Of a DNA stretch of 32,000 bases, positions 1-7,472 are shown piece by piece (within the stretch, counting starts at the first letter, position 1; each line of letters starts with the position of its first letter). Both the position numbers and the translations under genes were made by a program. The stretch covers positions 4,737 to 36,736 of the forward strand of contig CAZECW010000025.1 in the NCBI GenBank assembly GCA_964510585.1, in the 5' to 3' direction. Under the pieces are notes generated by a model. That model worked only from the letters and a program-made list of their open reading frames with translations, ran no database searches and was not told the DNA's origin. The stretch comes from an uncultured archaeon (GTDB lineage: Archaea; Asgardarchaeota; Jordiarchaeia; Jordiarchaeales; Jordiarchaeaceae).

Positions 1-103
1 AGCTTAGCAAATAATATATATTTAAAAATATAGTAAAATTATGTAAAGCCACCAAAAATATGAGGAAAAAGGAGAAAATGGCAAAAGCTGCAATAGGGGC
101 AGA

Positions 104-1837
104 GTGGATATGGTACCCAAGCATGAAGAATATGCGTTCAAAGTTGTTTGCATTGGGGATGGTGGTGTAGGCAAGACCAGCCTAATAGTAAGGCTAACCG
201 AGAATAGGTTCTCAGAAGACTACAAAATGACTTTAGGAACTTCTTTTGCCGCTCACACCATAAATATTGAGGATAAAATTGTGACTTTACAGATTTGGGA
301 TCTTGGAGGTCAGCCCTCCTTCAGTCACTTGAGGTCGTTTTTCTATGCTGGAGCTAAGGGGGCTGTGATTGTTTTTGACTTAACAGATATTAAATCTTTT
401 AAGAATGTTACAACATGGTATAAAGAGTTGCGTAGCGTTTGCGGTGATGTGCCGATTGTTTTGATCGGTAATAAGAATGATTTGGCTGGCAGCCGTGTTG
501 TTGCTAGGCAGGAGGCGGAGATGCTTGCTAGAAGCTTGGGCGCACCTTACATTGAGACTAGTGCTAAAACTGGTGACAAGGTTAATTTGGCTTTTCAAAG
601 TGTTTCAAGGCGCTTGTTGGGTATCGAAGAAAAGTTACCTATGGTAAAGGGTGTGGTGGTTCCAGATGTTAAGAGTAAGATTCTGCAGTTTATTGACAGT
701 CGAAGGGACTATCTCCTAAATTTGCTTGGAGATCTAATTTCCGCTCGCTCTGTTAATCCTCCAGGAAATGAGAAGGTCGCCGCGGATGTTGTTCAAGGCG
801 AGTTGTTTAGGATTGGAATGCAAACTGAATCTTACGAGAAGGAGAGTGGGCGGACCAACGTTGTGGGCTATGTGGAGAAGGGTAACTCTCCCACTTTAAT
901 GATTATTACACATCTGGATGTGGTGCCTGCAGGCGACGGATGGATTTATGATCCGTTTAAAGCTACTCCCACTAATGGTAGGATTGTGGGTAGGGGTGTT
1001 GTTGATGATAAGGGGCCTATGGCCTCTGTTCTTCTGGCTATTCAAGCGCTTAAGGAGTTTAATTTTCCCATTCGGGGACGCTTGTTGTTTGTGGCCGTGG
1101 CAGATGAGGAAACTGGAAATGAGCTGGGCATAAAGTATCTTTTGAACGAAAAGGGCTTAACCGCTGATTATGCTTTGGTGGCTGAGCAAACTAAGTGTGA
1201 AGCGGTGGAGATTGCGGAAAAGGGCCGTTTGTGGGCAAGGCTGAAGAGTACTGGTGCACAAGGTCACGGTAGTATGCCGGTGAAGGGTGCGAATGCAATT
1301 GTAAATCTCTCAAAAGTTTTGGCCCGCATAGAAAACCTGAAAATGTCCTACACTGAGCATCCTCTGCTTGGAGCTCCAACCATAAATGTAGGAACAATAA
1401 AGGGCGGAGTGGCTATTAATGTGATTCCTGCTTCCGCCGAGGCCACAGTGGATATTAGATATCTACCCTCTCAGGATTTGAGGCAGATAATTAACGAGTT
1501 GCGCGAATTAGTGAGGAGCGTCCAGAGGGAGAACCCTGGGCTAGAGGTGGCCATTGAGCCCATAGCTTCGGATCCCCCGACGGAAGTATCTCCGGAAGAT
1601 CCCGTTGTCAGAGCAATGGTGAGTGTAATAAGGGAAGTGACGGGAAGCCAGCCTAAGCTAATTGGGATAGGGGGCGCTACAGTGGCGAAGCACTGTATTT
1701 CTCACGGTATTCCCACAGCTGTTTTTGGACCAGGGGATCCTAAAGAGGCCCACGCCGCAAACGAGAGTGTGTCCATAGATAGTTTACTTAAGGCAGCTAA
1801 AATTTATGCTCTGACCATATTAAACCTGCTCTCTTAA
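104..1837 (+). CDS. Fusion of an N-terminal Rab-like small GTPase (about aa 9-172) and a C-terminal M20 metallohydrolase (ArgE/DapE-like)
   Basis: GTPase motifs G1 GDGGVGKT, G2 TLG, G3 WDLGGQ, G4 NKND and G5 SAK are present. M20 motifs THLDVVP, GRGVVDDKG, DEET, AEQT, GHGS and AHAANE are present. One uninterrupted 577-aa frame; start is GTG 104 or ATG 110. Confidence 0.88.
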   Translation: MDMVPKHEEYAFKVVCIGDGGVGKTSLIVRLTENRFSEDYKMTLGTSFAAHTINIEDKIVTLQIWDLGGQPSFSHLRSFFYAGAKGAVIVFDLTDIKSFKNVTTWYKELRSVCGDVPIVLIGNKNDLAGSRVVARQEAEMLARSLGAPYIETSAKTGDKVNLAFQSVSRRLLGIEEKLPMVKGVVVPDVKSKILQFIDSRRDYLLNLLGDLISARSVNPPGNEKVAADVVQGELFRIGMQTESYEKESGRTNVVGYVEKGNSPTLMIITHLDVVPAGDGWIYDPFKATPTNGRIVGRGVVDDKGPMASVLLAIQALKEFNFPIRGRLLFVAVADEETGNELGIKYLLNEKGLTADYALVAEQTKCEAVEIAEKGRLWARLKSTGAQGHGSMPVKGANAIVNLSKVLARIENLKMSYTEHPLLGAPTINVGTIKGGVAINVIPASAEATVDIRYLPSQDLRQIINELRELVRSVQRENPGLEVAIEPIASDPPTEVSPEDPVVRAMVSVIREVTGSQPKLIGIGGATVAKHCISHGIPTAVFGPGDPKEAHAANESVSIDSLLKAAKIYALTILNLLS

Positions 1838-1848
1838 AATTTTAAGGT

Positions 1849-2292
1849 GTGGTTAAAGCTTTGGTTGAGTCAGAGAAATTTATTCGTTTTAGTGTTTCCC
1901 TCCCAGAAGACCTACTTAAAGAATTTGACAAGGTTACAGAGTCTCTTGGAATACAAGGTAGGTCTGACGCGATACGCAAAGCTATGCGTGACTTCATAGT
2001 AAACTATACTTGGATGCACAAGGGTAAGGGTGATATGGTGGGCTCAATAACCATAATCTTGGACCACGAGACCACTGGAATAATGGATGAAATCACCGAG
2101 CTGCAGCACAGATATTTAAAATTGATAGCCTCCTCCATGCATGTACATTTGGATGAACGTGAATGTATGATTGTTCTTGCAGTAAGGGGAAAAGTGGAGG
2201 ATATCGAAAAACTCAACAATGAAATACTTGCCCTCAAGGGAGTTAAACTGGTAAAGTACACCATTATGACCCCAGGAACCGAATTACCATAA
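1849..2292 (+). CDS. nikR: Nickel-responsive transcriptional regulator NikR (ribbon-helix-helix plus ACT-like Ni-binding domain)
   Basis: RHH signature RFSVSLPEDLLKEFD...RSDAIRKAMRDFI. Ni-ligand pattern QHRY...MHVHL...EC matches H76/H87/H89/C95 of NikR. Lies 11 bp after the upstream stop. Confidence 0.9.
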   Translation: MVKALVESEKFIRFSVSLPEDLLKEFDKVTESLGIQGRSDAIRKAMRDFIVNYTWMHKGKGDMVGSITIILDHETTGIMDEITELQHRYLKLIASSMHVHLDERECMIVLAVRGKVEDIEKLNNEILALKGVKLVKYTIMTPGTELP

Positions 2293-2336: not shown

Positions 2337-2469
2337 CACCTGCTATTCAAGTGGGTACACCATAATCACCTCCAAAAAAGGGATTTTGGAATAAATACTC
2401 GCTACCAACAAAGCCTACGTTTTTTCCAGCATAGTAGTCTGCTAGGCCTCCCCTACTAAAGAGGTGGAA

Positions 2470-4026
2470 ATGTTGCACTTGGAGTTGGATGGTTATTTCG
2501 AGTTGAGCGGTGTTCTTCCTAAGGAAGCCCAAAGAGAATTAGAAGCCTTCTTCGAGGAAGCCAACAAAAAACTACTTAAAAAAGGAGCGCCCAAAGGAAA
2601 AGAATCTGAAGGGGCACAAGTAACCAATTGGGCTCTCAAGGGGAATAAGATAGAACTGCAGATAATTAGCGGCAGATACGTTAGGGCGCACACCGCACTA
2701 CTCAGACTTTCCAACGTATTATCCAACATTCTAGGATCAAAATATCACACTGGTATCCGAAAATCTGTCGCCACCAAGTACAGAATTGAAACCCAACTTG
2801 AAAAAGCACCCCTAGAACCAGTAACCCTACCCTTCACCAAAGAATTAGAAATCAAGGATAAAACTGCCACCATAACTATGGTGGAAATGGATGAGAGTGA
2901 ACTCAAAAGAAACTATCCAGACCGCCTATTGCGGCGTCTCGAAGAGAAAATCACGGCCCAGTATGTTCATGGAAAAGCGGAATACACACGCACCGTTGAA
3001 AGAAGCAACAAGGGCTTGGGAAAATACAAGTTGAGAGAAGACCCCACAGAGGCCGCGGTTAAATTGGGATGGGTTAAAGAGTTCCCGGGAGCGGGCATAT
3101 GGCAGATACTGCCCCCGTATGCTGCACTTATCAGAGCCATAGAAAACATAATCATCGACGACATAGCAAAACCCCTAGGCTTCCAAGAAGTCATGCTTCC
3201 CCGACTAATTCCACTAGAAGTTGAGATGAAAAAAGGACACTTCGGAATAGCAAATGAGATAATATGGGCCTGTCCTCCAATATCCCGAGACCCCAAGGAA
3301 TTCGAGGAAATACTAGACTACGTGGAAATAACTGGCACTCCCCCCGTAGAATTACTCCAGAAAAAACTCCGCCCCCCAATGTTTGGACTAGCATACGCTC
3401 AATGTGAACCCTTCTACGAACTATTCGCCCAAGAAATAGTAGACGTAGAAGAACTTGAGAAAAACCCCATAAAATTCTACGACAAAAATGGGCCCACCTG
3501 GAGGTGGGAAGGGGGAGGACTAAAAGGCCTAGAACGCCTAAACGAATTCCACAGAATAGAATTCGTATACATGGCGCCACCCCAAAAATGCATAGAAATA
3601 AGAGACCAAGTACTTGAAAAAGCAAAAACCATGATAGACAAAGATTTGGACTTAGAATACCGAATAGACGCAACCACCGCCGTATACCTTGAACACGCGG
3701 GAATCGCCGAAGAACAGAAAGAGGAAGAATTCGTGAAAACCTACGACCTCACCGTAATACTCCCATTCGAAACCAAAAGCAGACCCGAAGCCGAACTAGA
3801 AGTCTCCAGCTTCCACGTACACACCGACTTTTATGCCAAAAGATTCCACTTCCGAGACAAAACCCGCAAAACAGTATACACCGGATGCGTAGGAATGGGT
3901 CCATCCCGCTACGCATACGTAACACTAATACGGCACGGATTCAACTATGACGACTGGCCTCAAAAAATCAAAAAATACATTGGCGAAAAACTACCCGAAG
4001 TCCCCAAAACAGTAACCTGGCCATAA
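2470..4026 (+). CDS. serS: Seryl-tRNA synthetase, methanogen-type (type 2, Zn-dependent)
   Basis: N-terminal domain typical of type-2 SerRS (LLKKGAP...SGRYVRAHTALLRL). Class II motifs include GLERLNEFHRIE. Zn-ligand motifs YAQCEPF, EFHRIEF and YTGCVGMG correspond to the Cys/Glu/Cys triad of Methanosarcina barkeri SerRS. GAGGTG SD-like site at 2461-2466; the ORF track starts at GTG 2464. Confidence 0.92.
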   Translation: MLHLELDGYFELSGVLPKEAQRELEAFFEEANKKLLKKGAPKGKESEGAQVTNWALKGNKIELQIISGRYVRAHTALLRLSNVLSNILGSKYHTGIRKSVATKYRIETQLEKAPLEPVTLPFTKELEIKDKTATITMVEMDESELKRNYPDRLLRRLEEKITAQYVHGKAEYTRTVERSNKGLGKYKLREDPTEAAVKLGWVKEFPGAGIWQILPPYAALIRAIENIIIDDIAKPLGFQEVMLPRLIPLEVEMKKGHFGIANEIIWACPPISRDPKEFEEILDYVEITGTPPVELLQKKLRPPMFGLAYAQCEPFYELFAQEIVDVEELEKNPIKFYDKNGPTWRWEGGGLKGLERLNEFHRIEFVYMAPPQKCIEIRDQVLEKAKTMIDKDLDLEYRIDATTAVYLEHAGIAEEQKEEEFVKTYDLTVILPFETKSRPEAELEVSSFHVHTDFYAKRFHFRDKTRKTVYTGCVGMGPSRYAYVTLIRHGFNYDDWPQKIKKYIGEKLPEVPKTVTWP

Positions 4027-4101: not shown

Positions 4102-6933
4102 TTAGGTTTCGATGAGAACTCCTGGTTTTAACGGTTCAGCCACCCTTGCCTTCTCATGCTTCGACTCCTCAGCCCTCAGAACCTCAACCTTAGCTCCAAA
4201 TTCCTTAGATAAGAAATCCGCCGCCTCAGACAAAGTCTTAAACTCCATTTCCTGAGTAAGCATTTCATGGCGGGGATTCTTAAGCAATTTTTGCGCATAG
4301 TTCACAGCATCTTTTCCCTGCCTCTTAACCTCAGCATCAGCCATAACTCTCTTTATCAAATCTTCCCTACTCTTCAAGGACTCCGCTAAAATCTTGTACT
4401 TCCAACCCTGAGCCACAAAAAGAGTAATCTTAGAAGGCTTCTCAATTCTGGCAACCTTAAGAATCTCCTTTATATCCTCAATAGTGTCGCCTATGAGCTT
4501 CTCCCGAAGCTCCAACTCCTCATCAAAATACTTCTCATCATAAGTCGGCCAAGGCTCCTGGACAATGAATCTCTTGTGACCGATACTCTCCCAAATCTCC
4601 TCACAGATATGAGGAGTCACAGGAGACACCAGCAGAATCATAGTCTCCACAGCCTTCCTTAAAACATCCGAATATTCCTCAGTACGCTTCATATACCAAC
4701 GAATATCATTCCATAAATCAAAAAACCCCTCCTGAAGAGCAGAGCGGTTCCTCATAACCTCATAATACTCGGTAGCCGCCTTAATATGCCTATGAACTCT
4801 ACTCAAAAGCCAACGATCAATATCCCTATCCAAAGGCTTAGTCTCAGGCAAACTAGTAGCAAAATCATAAAACAACTCCAACCTCCTACGGAGACTCACA
4901 ACCTCCTGAGCCCGCCAATCCGGATCCACCAACCCCTCAGCCGAATAAGCCAACTCAAAACGAGTAGGATCAGCATTATACTGATCCAAAGCCTCCTTAA
5001 GAGTAATAAAAATCCCCCGCGACTTACTCATCTTCTGCCCCTCGATCTGAATCATACCATTAGCCCCCACCATCCGCGGCCACTTATCCTCAGGCCAAAT
5101 AGCCACATGCTGAAACAAGAAAAACGTCAAATGATTAAAAATCAACTCCTTAGCCGAATTCCTAAGAGAAACAGGATACCAATACTCAAACTCATCCCTC
5201 ATCTCCTCCAACAACTCCTCATCCAAACCACTCCTCCCAGCAACCTCCTCCACATTTCCCTTACCTAAAAAAATATAATCAAAAACCTCACGAGTCAACT
5301 TCTCTGCCGGAATCCCCAAACCATAAATATGCTTAGCAACAGTGTAAAAGGCCATATAAACCGTAGAATCCGATAAAGTCTCCACAATCCAATCCGGATC
5401 CCAAGGAAGCCTAGTACCCAAACCACTCCGCCGCACACAAGCCTTATCCTCCAACCAATCCACCGTATACTCAAAAGCACTCCTAGCCTCATCTGGAACA
5501 ATAACCATACGCCCCAAAAGCTCCCTAACCCGCGCCTTCCACTCCGGATCACTATACTTCAAAAACCACTGATTCTCCAAAATCTTCACAATAGTACGCG
5601 TATTGCAACGACAAACCACGGGCTCCGCAGTCTCCCACAAGCTACTCGCCTTACCTTCACTCACAAAATCCGCAATCAACTCCTTCTTAACCTCAGCAAC
5701 ACTCCGCCCCACATACTTACCAGTAACCTTTTTAAGAACACCCTTATGAAACTCCTTCCTATAAACCTCCTTAGTGATATCCTCCAACCGCCCATCCTTC
5801 TGACTCTTAATACCAGCCGCCTCAACAAGCTCCACAGCAGGATGCTCACCAAACCCCTCAGTCTCAATCAAAGAAATAGGCTTCAACCCCACAACAATAC
5901 TCGGATCAATACCATACTCTCTAAGAACCTCAGGATTCCTACGCAAATCAGCGATAGCCGCCCAGTCAAAAGGAGCATGACTCGGAACACTCATAACCAC
6001 ACCCGAAGCATTACCCGGATCAACAAAAGAAGCCGGCAAAATGGGAACCTCACTACCCACCACGACATTCCTACAAAACTTACCAATAAGCCTACGCCCC
6101 TCGAACTCCTCCAAAACCTCAACCACATGCAACTGATCCCTAAGCTTCTGAACCGCCTCCCTACTAACAATCCACACCTCACCATCAACACGAGCCCTAA
6201 CATAAACCGCATCCGGGTTCAACCACATATTCGTAACACCAAAAACAGTCTCCGGACGCAAAGTAGCAGCCATAAGAAAAGCATCATCACACTCAAACTT
6301 CAACAAAGTATACTCAATAGGAGAAACACCCTCACCCACCAATCGATCATGATCACCAGTAGGCGACAAACAACGAGGACACCAAACCACAGGATGACTA
6401 CCCAAAACCACATAACCCTTATCACGCAAAGTCCAATACTGCCACTCAACAAACTTATTATAAGGAGGATCAACAGTAGTAAACTGCCGCCGCCAATCAA
6501 CACTAAAACCAATCCGATCCACTGTTTCTATAGCTTCAGCCCGATAATAATCACCAATATATTTTGGATCCGTAAATTTGCTAATCTCCTCCCGTGGCAC
6601 ACCACTCCTAATCAAAATATCAATCTGCTTCTGATCACCCTCAGCAATACGCTTAGCCACACCCACAAGTGGCTCCCCCGTATAATGAAAGGCAAAGGGA
6701 AACAACACATTATAACCTTGCATACGCTTAAAACGAGCATAAATATCAACACGCAAACAAGTTAAGGCATGACCTATATGCAGTGGACCATTCATATAGG
6801 CGTAAGGAAATGTAAATAGTTTTCCTTTTGAATATTTAGATTTTCTTTTATTCTTTGGTGGTGGGTCTGCTTGGAATATTTTTGCCTGTTTCCACTTTTG
6901 TTGCCATTTTTTTTCTATTTGGTTCCAGTCCAT
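4102..6933 (-). CDS. leuS: Leucyl-tRNA synthetase (archaeal/eukaryotic type)
   Basis: TFPYAYMNGPLHIGH (HIGH), QKMSKS (KMSKS), CP1 editing domain (ATLRPETVFG, SVPSHAPFD) and WIVETLSDSTVY. Start is placed at ATG 6933 (MDWNQIEKKWQQKW); the first 60 codons of the ORF-track call overlap the VOC gene. Confidence 0.97.
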   Translation of the reverse strand: MDWNQIEKKWQQKWKQAKIFQADPPPKNKRKSKYSKGKLFTFPYAYMNGPLHIGHALTCLRVDIYARFKRMQGYNVLFPFAFHYTGEPLVGVAKRIAEGDQKQIDILIRSGVPREEISKFTDPKYIGDYYRAEAIETVDRIGFSVDWRRQFTTVDPPYNKFVEWQYWTLRDKGYVVLGSHPVVWCPRCLSPTGDHDRLVGEGVSPIEYTLLKFECDDAFLMAATLRPETVFGVTNMWLNPDAVYVRARVDGEVWIVSREAVQKLRDQLHVVEVLEEFEGRRLIGKFCRNVVVGSEVPILPASFVDPGNASGVVMSVPSHAPFDWAAIADLRRNPEVLREYGIDPSIVVGLKPISLIETEGFGEHPAVELVEAAGIKSQKDGRLEDITKEVYRKEFHKGVLKKVTGKYVGRSVAEVKKELIADFVSEGKASSLWETAEPVVCRCNTRTIVKILENQWFLKYSDPEWKARVRELLGRMVIVPDEARSAFEYTVDWLEDKACVRRSGLGTRLPWDPDWIVETLSDSTVYMAFYTVAKHIYGLGIPAEKLTREVFDYIFLGKGNVEEVAGRSGLDEELLEEMRDEFEYWYPVSLRNSAKELIFNHLTFFLFQHVAIWPEDKWPRMVGANGMIQIEGQKMSKSRGIFITLKEALDQYNADPTRFELAYSAEGLVDPDWRAQEVVSLRRRLELFYDFATSLPETKPLDRDIDRWLLSRVHRHIKAATEYYEVMRNRSALQEGFFDLWNDIRWYMKRTEEYSDVLRKAVETMILLVSPVTPHICEEIWESIGHKRFIVQEPWPTYDEKYFDEELELREKLIGDTIEDIKEILKVARIEKPSKITLFVAQGWKYKILAESLKSREDLIKRVMADAEVKRQGKDAVNYAQKLLKNPRHEMLTQEMEFKTLSEAADFLSKEFGAKVEVLRAEESKHEKARVAEPLKPGVLIET

Positions 6934-7043
6934 TCTTGTCGCCCTTGAAGATGGTGTGTTGTTAGGTTGGTTATCTATTGAGTCATTATTTAAGAATTGT
7001 GTGCAACTTTTGTTGAAACTGACATTTGTGTCTTTAATTATTT

Positions 7044-7472
7044 TTATTCTTCTGGCCATTGTCCTAGTTCTAGTATGAACCCACATTTTTCTTGCGTGTC
7101 TAGGTAAGCCCATTTTACTCCGAAGATTTCTCCTCTGTCGAGGATTTTTACTCCAATTTTTTCTAGGTTTTTTAGTTCTTTTTCAATATCCTTGCAGTGA
7201 TAGCTTACGTGGTGGAGTCCTTCTCCTTTTTGTTTGAGCCATTTGGAGTGTATTGTGTCTCCTTCTAGGGGTTGGATTAGCTCGATTTGTAGGTCTCCCT
7301 GCTGGTATATGCCGATTTTCACTTTGCCGCCTGGTACTTCTGTTTCTATTGTGGGAAATGGTCCTATTCCCAGCTTTTCTAGGAATTTTGCGGTCTTTTC
7401 CATGTCTTTTACTACTATTCCTAGTTGGCTGATTTTGTAGTCTGTTACCTTTTCGCTTGATGTGGTTTCCAT
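7044..7472 (-). CDS. VOC/glyoxalase-family protein (methylmalonyl-CoA epimerase-like)
   Basis: QLGIVVKDMEKTAKF, IELIQP, EGLHHVSY and ILELGQ form the two beta-alpha-beta-beta-beta VOC modules. Confidence 0.8.
   Translation of the reverse strand: METTSSEKVTDYKISQLGIVVKDMEKTAKFLEKLGIGPFPTIETEVPGGKVKIGIYQQGDLQIELIQPLEGDTIHSKWLKQKGEGLHHVSYHCKDIEKELKNLEKIGVKILDRGEIFGVKWAYLDTQEKCGFILELGQWPEE

Follow-up and report, generated by a model that had tools for sequence, protein, structure and literature searches.

A Rab-like small GTPase fused in a single reading frame to an ArgE/DapE-type M20 metallohydrolase in Jordarchaeales

The window analysed here is a stretch of 32,000 nucleotides from an uncultured hot-spring archaeon of the Asgardarchaeota (assembly GCA_964510585.1, contig CAZECW010000025.1, forward-strand positions 4,737 to 36,736). 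Positions 104-1837 (+) of this window form a single uninterrupted open reading frame of 577 codons, in which a Rab-like small GTPase domain (G domain) is followed by a linker and by the body of an M20 metallohydrolase. A first-pass annotation, made from the letters alone, had described this 577-amino-acid frame with its three parts, and a codon-level check found every described detail to be correct. The fusion gene (110-1837, +) probably starts at the ATG at 110, since all orthologs start at the corresponding methionine in the alignment; the in-frame GTG at 104 gives the longest option, and with the stop codon at 1835-1837 the product has 575-577 amino acids. Independent initiation of the M20 half was ruled out: the internal ATG of the linker (Met180) is not kept in the orthologs, and thus the M20 half has no conserved start of its own.

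The N-terminal part of the protein (125-619, +; residues 8-172) is a Rab-like small GTPase domain. The Pfam family Ras matched residues 13-171 with an E-value of 1.6e-51 and 174.5 bits against a cut-off of 21.6, and Pfam Roc also matched the G domain (1e-31). The five G boxes named in the first-pass annotation (GDGGVGKT, TLG, WDLGGQ, NKND, and SAK) were all present when checked base by base, and they occur in the order expected of the Ras superfamily within a domain of about 170 amino acids. On the plus strand, the G1 P-loop GDGGVGKT is located at 155-178 and is conserved in all fusion clades, Thr43 of G2 in switch I at 230-232, the DLGGQ of G3 with the catalytic Gln70 at 299-313, the NKND of G4 at 470-481, and the SAK of G5 at 560-568. 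By these motifs the G domain is fully canonical and is predicted to be competent for hydrolysis. The region comprising G3, switch II and helix alpha2 (299-349, +) is the most conserved stretch of the domain: 16 of 18 positions in switch II and alpha2 are invariant across both Jordarchaeales families that carry the fusion, compared to 3 of 18 in stand-alone relatives. Pro71, Ser72, and His75 are invariant in, and specific to, the Jordarchaeales fusions. This invariance, together with the fusion-specific residues, suggests that switch II serves as a dedicated partner surface.

Among solved structures, the best match to the G domain was the Rab of a Thorarchaeota member (7EZB; 1.9e-42), followed by Rab1, Rab21, Rab2, and Rab11, and the nearest stand-alone G domains were Asgard GTPases annotated as "Rab family", with up to 51% identity. 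In the GTPase tree, the G domains of the fusions formed a clade apart from the five eukaryotic sequences included (Rabs mainly by annotation, the named one being Rab7), which together with a few unlabelled stand-alone sequences formed a clade of their own (97). The RabF1-F5 motifs, reportedly IGVDF, KLQIW, RFRSIT, YYRGA, and LVYDIT according to Pereira-Leal and Seabra, have the counterparts LGTSF, TLQIW, SFSHLRS, FYAGA, and IVFDLT in the G domain, which by eye are partial matches only. As the first-pass annotation had observed, a C-terminal prenylation motif is lacking: the protein ends in NLLS without a cysteine, and the C-terminus of the G domain runs on into the M20 body. The domain is therefore best termed Rab-like by its sequence, and not a Rab in the strict eukaryotic sense, because solved Rabs match it best, yet it has no prenylation motif and stands apart from the eukaryotic sequences in the tree.

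The two domains are joined by a flexible linker of about 17 residues (620-670, +; residues 173-189), which is the least conserved part of the protein, with only 2 of 17 positions invariant and a ratio of nonsynonymous to synonymous substitution rates (dN/dS, ω) above that of either domain. The remainder (671-1834, +; residues 190-577) is an ArgE/DapE-type M20 metallohydrolase body that aligns end to end with the solved DapE 7UOI and ArgE 7RSF. Pfam Peptidase_M20 matched residues 267-573 (8e-35), and the NCBIfam model TIGR01910 (ArgE/DapE family deacylase) scored 291.5 bits, above its curated cut-off of 217.6. The dimerisation or lid domain (1211-1531, +; residues 370-476) was recognised by Pfam M20_dimer with an E-value of 3.3e-25 and includes His388 (1265-1267); in DapE, the lid histidine reaches into the active site of the partner subunit. 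Alignment to DapE and ArgE and a codon check placed the metal ligand His270 at 911-913, the bridging metal ligand Asp301 at 1004-1006, the general base Glu335 with the metal ligand Glu336 at 1106-1111, and the metal ligand His550 at 1751-1753, all on the plus strand. Glu361 (1184-1186, +) aligns with the ligand glutamate of the GEPT position in the solved DapE and ArgE. All seven catalytic and metal-binding residues are thus encoded, which confirms the earlier description of an M20 domain with its full catalytic set. The M20 body scored below every substrate-specific NCBIfam equivalog cut-off (DapE, ArgE, LysK, and PepV), with 248 against 333 for PRK13983, 231 against 381 for DapE (PRK08651), 191 against 298 for ArgE, and 115 against 288 for LysK.

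The fusion is real, and an assembly artefact is excluded. The stretch recurs in hot-spring metagenomes of many studies, and contigs from three other hot-spring runs, each from a different study, span the whole gene and its junction with no gaps, no indels and no joints. One of these contigs (X3) had no differences across window positions 1-1887, while the other two (X4 and X5) carried 46-47 substitutions across about 2.3 kb. These three independent assemblies cover the interval 600-700, for which the first-pass annotation had recommended a check of read coverage. Within the order, the same single frame was found in every one of the 11 genomes, among them a closed one, and about 15 public protein clusters have both domains. 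The chance that two neighbouring genes were merged by a mis-assembly or a sequencing indel is accordingly negligible.

The distribution of the fusion was determined in a survey of 400 Asgard genomes with a threshold of E ≤ 1e-80 for a full-length single frame. The fusion was found once per genome in the window's family (f1; six of six genomes, including the closed one) and in a sister family of the same order (f2; five of five), the order being Jordarchaeales, also listed under Freyr- or Jordarchaeia. The fusion thus recurs, which the first-pass annotation had suggested checking, and it was also present in all three genomes of a distant family (f26). This family holds a divergent third fusion clade, hereafter clade H, which is full-length in three metagenome-assembled genomes labelled Promethearchaeota or Hodarchaeota. 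Apart from clade H, the fusion was absent from all other families of the survey and from about 386 Asgard genomes outside Jordarchaeales. An exhaustive HMMER pass over 1.84 billion representatives revealed only one further Ras-M20 protein (P0122), which belongs to clade H; the other proteins with multiple hits were multi-Ras proteins and were discarded. A cluster search of AlphaFold DB returned no representative with both domains, the M20 part alone being matched. The public clusters that have both domains contain proteins of 575-602 amino acids with 98% to 49% identity and carry the names Freyrarchaeum, Freyarchaeota, or Jordarchaeales, with "ArgE/DapE family deacylase" as their sole annotation.

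The window's genome, which is 96% complete, contains exactly one fusion gene. Its stand-alone M20 paralogs are at most 37% identical to the fusion, its many stand-alone small GTPases at most 51%, and no second copy of the fusion's M20 orthogroup was found, so that the fused copy is the only candidate for the job of that enzyme in f1. The possibility of two paralogous fusions per genome was rejected, as each genome has one copy and the clades of the two families are orthologous. In the trees, f1 and f2 were monophyletic for the M20 halves (SH-aLRT 98) and likewise for the GTPase halves (98), and this monophyly of both halves indicates, as far as the trees go, a single fusion in the common ancestor of Jordarchaeales. 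Clade H lies on a long branch inside the same small M20 clade, and constraining all fusions to one clade was not rejected for either half (approximately unbiased test, p-AU 0.56 and 0.48). The nearest stand-alone M20 proteins, with about 50% identity, belong to Bathyarchaeia and to another Asgard family.

Two further proteins with related domain combinations were recorded. On contig C17 of the window's genome (L005:598-1767:+), a protein of 389 amino acids combines N-terminal HEAT/Armadillo repeats with a Ras domain at the C-terminus, which shares 51% identity with the G domain of the fusion. A metagenomic protein of 501 amino acids (P0210) carries an N-terminal DUF2007, described as a "putative prokaryotic signal transducing protein", ahead of a full M20 with its dimerisation domain, and is a second case of a signalling-type domain preceding the M20 fold.

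Comparison of the three clades revealed a marked asymmetry between the two halves. The motifs G1 to G5, including the catalytic glutamine, are invariant in f1, f2, and clade H, while the complete M20 catalytic set is found only in f1. In f2, Glu361 is replaced by glycine in every member and the substrate loop GIGGATVAK is rewritten; the general base is lacking in one member, and the lid histidine has become tyrosine in three. In clade H, Asp301 is replaced by cysteine, the Glu-Glu pair by Gly-Leu, Glu361 by serine, and His550 by asparagine, and the lid histidine is lost. These replacements are conserved among the four sequences of the clade, and cysteines lie at or beside three former ligand positions. 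The clade H protein was nevertheless modelled as a confident G domain with a full M20 body, with a predicted local distance difference test score (pLDDT) of 88.5, and this body superposes on DapE and ArgE with template modelling (TM) scores of 0.66-0.76. As a separate observation, the former di-zinc site of clade H (L033:6001-7836, L032, L034, and L009) now carries the conserved motifs VCHHD, GACC(G/S)KG, and EKCN, so that cysteines and an extra histidine occupy or adjoin three former ligand positions, and the pseudo-M20 may have acquired a novel metal or redox site of the Cys/His type.

Both halves are under purifying selection. In f1, close pairs (dS 0.1-0.27) gave ω values of 0.09-0.13 for the GTPase and 0.04 for the M20 half; in f2 (G114 compared to G113) the values were 0.05 and 0.13, and in clade H 0.03-0.08 and 0.03-0.07, respectively. 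The linker is relaxed everywhere, with values of 0.17-0.53 in clade H, and the stem branch of the f2 M20 is 2.4 times as long as that of f1. To judge from these sequences, the switch and the M20 fold are kept by selection in all three clades, and canonical catalysis in f1 alone. As the G boxes and the M20 fold are constrained even where the ligands are lost, the conserved core would be a switch plus an M20 body, and not hydrolysis. In the window's genome, the M20 body has most likely retained deacylase or peptidase activity, because its site is complete, it is very strongly constrained and it is the sole copy of its orthogroup.

Genomic context analyses revealed that the fusion gene is followed, 12 nucleotides past its stop codon, by a gene for the nickel-responsive regulator NikR (1849-2292, +; PRK01002, 162 bits against 111). 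Next to it lie a class II aminoacyl-tRNA synthetase with an N-terminal tRNA_bind_4 domain, a putative SerRS (2464-4026, +), and, adjoining it on the opposite strand, LeuRS (4102-7113). The linkage of these downstream genes is kept only within the genus. Upstream, a thioredoxin reductase scoring above its equivalog cut-off, a second gene resembling thioredoxin reductase and a small NUDIX hydrolase, itself unspecific, are linked to the fusion in both f1 and f2. Two further observations concern this region. In a sediment metatranscriptome library (run X18), contigs were 93-98% alike to both gene halves and NikR (window 452-2085); none of these RNA-Seq contigs bridges 610-629 and carry-over of DNA is possible, which leaves a weak hint that the gene of a close relative is transcribed. 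Between 4001 and 9000, the GC skew of the window shifts strongly, with values of -0.41 and -0.52 at 4-6 kb and of +0.28 and +0.35 at 7-9 kb.

In f2, the NUDIX gene and RpiA flank the fusion, and RpiA is followed by a stand-alone Ras-like GTPase and NDK. This GTPase (L024:6223-6759:-, L026:3804-4376:-) is located about 1.2 kb downstream of the fusion, after RpiA and before NDK and an ACT-domain gene, and is 46-47% identical to the fused G domain. In clade H, the fusion is flanked on one side by a divergent Arf-like GTPase and, beyond it, by NadX, NadA, and NadC, and on the other, downstream side by an NAD(P)HX repair enzyme. The Arf-like GTPase (L033:4886-5731:-; L009:47-862:-; 281 amino acids) is directly upstream of the fusion in divergent orientation, and its N-terminal extension of about 125 amino acids matches no known family. 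A stand-alone M20 ortholog of Bathyarchaeia adjoins NadE; other stand-alone orthologs adjoin S-Me-THD and PGA_cap genes, and since the neighbours differ in this way, an apparent NAD theme did not hold and is kept only as a lead.

The interpretation given about an even chance here is that the protein works as a switch-and-partner module with a covalent tether: a floppy linker connects the Rab-like switch to a dimerising di-zinc amidohydrolase. By analogy with ArgE/DapE enzymes, the M20 lid domains would dimerise and so generate a GTPase with two heads. Whether the G domain is bound to GTP or GDP would be read out through the unusually conserved switch II and would alter the contacts that the G domain makes, be it to the M20 body or to a third protein, and the state of the M20 cleft would thereby be coupled to the GTP/GDP cycle. 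Across the family, the common role would be the pairing of a switch with an M20 body that serves as a platform for ligand binding or scaffolding, rather than hydrolysis itself. The data show that the fusion is real and conserved, that both halves are under purifying selection and which motifs each clade has kept; dimerisation, enzymatic activity and any coupling of the two halves are inferred.

Several results weigh against this interpretation. The AlphaFold2 monomer model of the window's protein was confident within each domain (mean pLDDT 91.3), while the linker had a pLDDT below 50 at residues 177-185 and the predicted TM score (pTM) was 0.67, so that the G domain is not confidently docked on the M20 body. 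A complex prediction with an M20 dimer, one G domain, GTP and Mg gave a score of 0.00 and has no bearing either way. Direct evidence of coupling between the halves was not obtained, and the two activities might do no more than share a polypeptide, each acting by itself. The neighbourhoods of the fusions in f1, f2, and clade H and of the stand-alone orthologs reveal no consistent pathway. The f2 protein, which has lost one ligand, may still be a mono-metal enzyme, and the argument that catalysis is dispensable therefore rests mainly on clade H. An origin of clade H shared with the Jordarchaeales fusion is possible, the trees being compatible with it and no more.

The first-pass annotation had suggested a GTP/GDP-gated amidohydrolase or peptidase. 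In the strict form of this idea, the only purpose of the G domain would be to switch the M20 enzyme on and off allosterically, for example by locking its lid open or closed. Such gating may hold for the window's family, in which both halves are intact and the M20 half is under very strong constraint (ω 0.04); the tether is short, the conservation of switch II is high, DapE enzymes need an open-to-closed movement of the lid, and a docked domain could control that movement. As an account of the whole family it does not stand, because the intact switch and the M20 fold are kept under purifying selection where the catalytic residues are partly (f2) or almost wholly (clade H) lost, and the monomer model gave no confident docking; overall, gating as the sole function is considered unlikely. 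That the two domains are independent in function, and that the fusion only ensures co-expression or equal stoichiometry of two domains serving one process, would be in line with the lack of predicted docking and with the lineage-specific shuffling of eukaryotic signature protein domains described as common in Asgard archaea (bioRxiv 10.1101/2020.10.19.343400). It is harder to reconcile with one frame in one copy per genome, kept across an order whose sequences differ by about 50% and in a second lineage, with the fusion-specific invariant residues of switch II, and with an M20 half that is faster-evolving and remodelled only in fused lineages; it is given a low probability.

Another explanation is that the G domain recruits the M20 body to a membrane, compartment or complex in a nucleotide-dependent manner, as Rabs recruit effectors, with no allostery involved. 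The Rab-like nature of the G domain agrees with this, as do a linker that is flexible and poorly conserved, as a tether should be, an even longer disordered linker in clade H, and a conserved switch II with which an external partner could interact. On expression in HeLa cells, however, Asgard GTPases failed to localise to membranes (PMC10933270), and the fusion has no lipid-anchor motif, the C-terminus of its G domain being taken up by the M20 body. Neither a guanine-nucleotide exchange factor (GEF), nor a GTPase-activating protein (GAP), nor a receptor gene was found consistently near the fusion, and targeting is regarded as rather improbable. The fusion of a GTPase to a metalloenzyme, the NikR gene directly downstream in the window's genus and the fact that the metal site is the part differing between clades raise the question of whether the GTPase loads or exchanges the metal of the M20 site, like the MeaB-type G proteins (as in the IcmF fusion) or ZNG1. 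MeaB-type G proteins serve mutases, and ZNG1 serves methionine aminopeptidase. The G domain of the fusion is Ras-like and of the TRAFAC class rather than G3E/SIMIBI, matches no CobW, UreG, HypB, or MeaB family and has no Cys/His metal-binding motif, and the NikR linkage is confined to the genus, which makes such a metallochaperone-like role very improbable.

A broader extension of the switch-and-partner module, at present rather improbable, would regard the fusion as an innovation of Asgard archaea, with the M20 enzyme or pseudoenzyme acting for the Rab-like switch as a sensor of a small molecule (an N-acyl amino acid, a peptide or a metal). Ligand binding or turnover in the M20 cleft would set the state of the GTPase, or the GTPase would set the state of the cleft; f1 would represent the ancestral condition, in which catalysis is retained, and clade H would have turned into a sensor alone, its site remodelled to Cys/His.

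Asgard small GTPases have been described as stand-alone proteins, as roadblock or longin fusions, and in combination with "various domains of unknown function" (PMC10933270). Literature searches for Ras/Rab-M20 proteins in Asgard archaea returned no description of the architecture and no mention of an M20 partner, in agreement with the first-pass annotation, which knew of none. The fusion can be regarded as a variant of the known Asgard multidomain GTPases. It shares the fold and G1-G5, including the catalytic glutamine, with the Asgard Rab-like GTPases (7EZB; Tran et al., 2024, PMC10933270), which are stand-alone proteins of about 175 amino acids or roadblock/longin fusions, whereas here a C-terminal enzyme body of 390 amino acids and a switch II signature of its own are found. 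With the ArgE/DapE M20 deacylases (DapE 7UOI and 5VO3; ArgE 7RSF) it shares the two-lobed catalytic and dimerisation fold, the His-Asp-Glu-Glu-Glu-His set and the lid histidine, but it adds an N-terminal GTPase, and the catalytic set is eroded in sister lineages.

Likenesses to other systems are conceptual. The fusion resembles Roco proteins (LRRK2 and bacterial Roco) in that one chain unites a Ras-like G domain with a module for dimerisation and with an enzymatic output. Roco proteins consist of a Roc GTPase, a COR dimerisation device and an enzyme output, whereas in the fusion Pfam finds only M20 and no COR after the G domain, an M20 hydrolase takes the place of a kinase as the partner, and the G domain is nearer to Rab than to Roc. 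In IcmF, where a MeaB-like G protein and isobutyryl-CoA mutase are fused, and in other pairs of a GTPase and a metalloenzyme, a GTPase is likewise covalently joined to a metal or cofactor enzyme; the G domain of IcmF is a SIMIBI/G3E chaperone, in contrast to the TRAFAC Ras-like switch without a metal-binding motif found here. The Rag GTPases of eukaryotic nutrient sensing, with their roadblock partners, share the idea of a GTPase combined with a ligand-binding module that is not necessarily catalytic, to which the conserved M20 pseudoenzyme of clade H joined to an intact switch is a parallel. The fusion has no sequence relationship to the Rag systems, and sensing by it is purely hypothetical; if it did act as a sensor, prokaryotes would have, in a single polypeptide, a counterpart of the nutrient sensing that is coupled to GTPases.

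The "ArgE/DapE family deacylase" label of the public entries hides a GTPase, and the present analysis corrects this annotation. The function of Asgard small GTPases is a central open question for the origin of the eukaryotic membrane and signalling systems, and to our knowledge almost none of them has a known effector. In the fusion, a Rab-like switch is welded to a well-understood and easily assayed enzyme fold and has been kept so for the lifetime of an order, and it therefore offers a tractable read-out (hydrolysis, lid closure or dimer state) by which the nucleotide cycle of such a GTPase can be followed. The natural series from active enzyme through remodelled site to pseudoenzyme allows the contribution of the partner domain to be asked.

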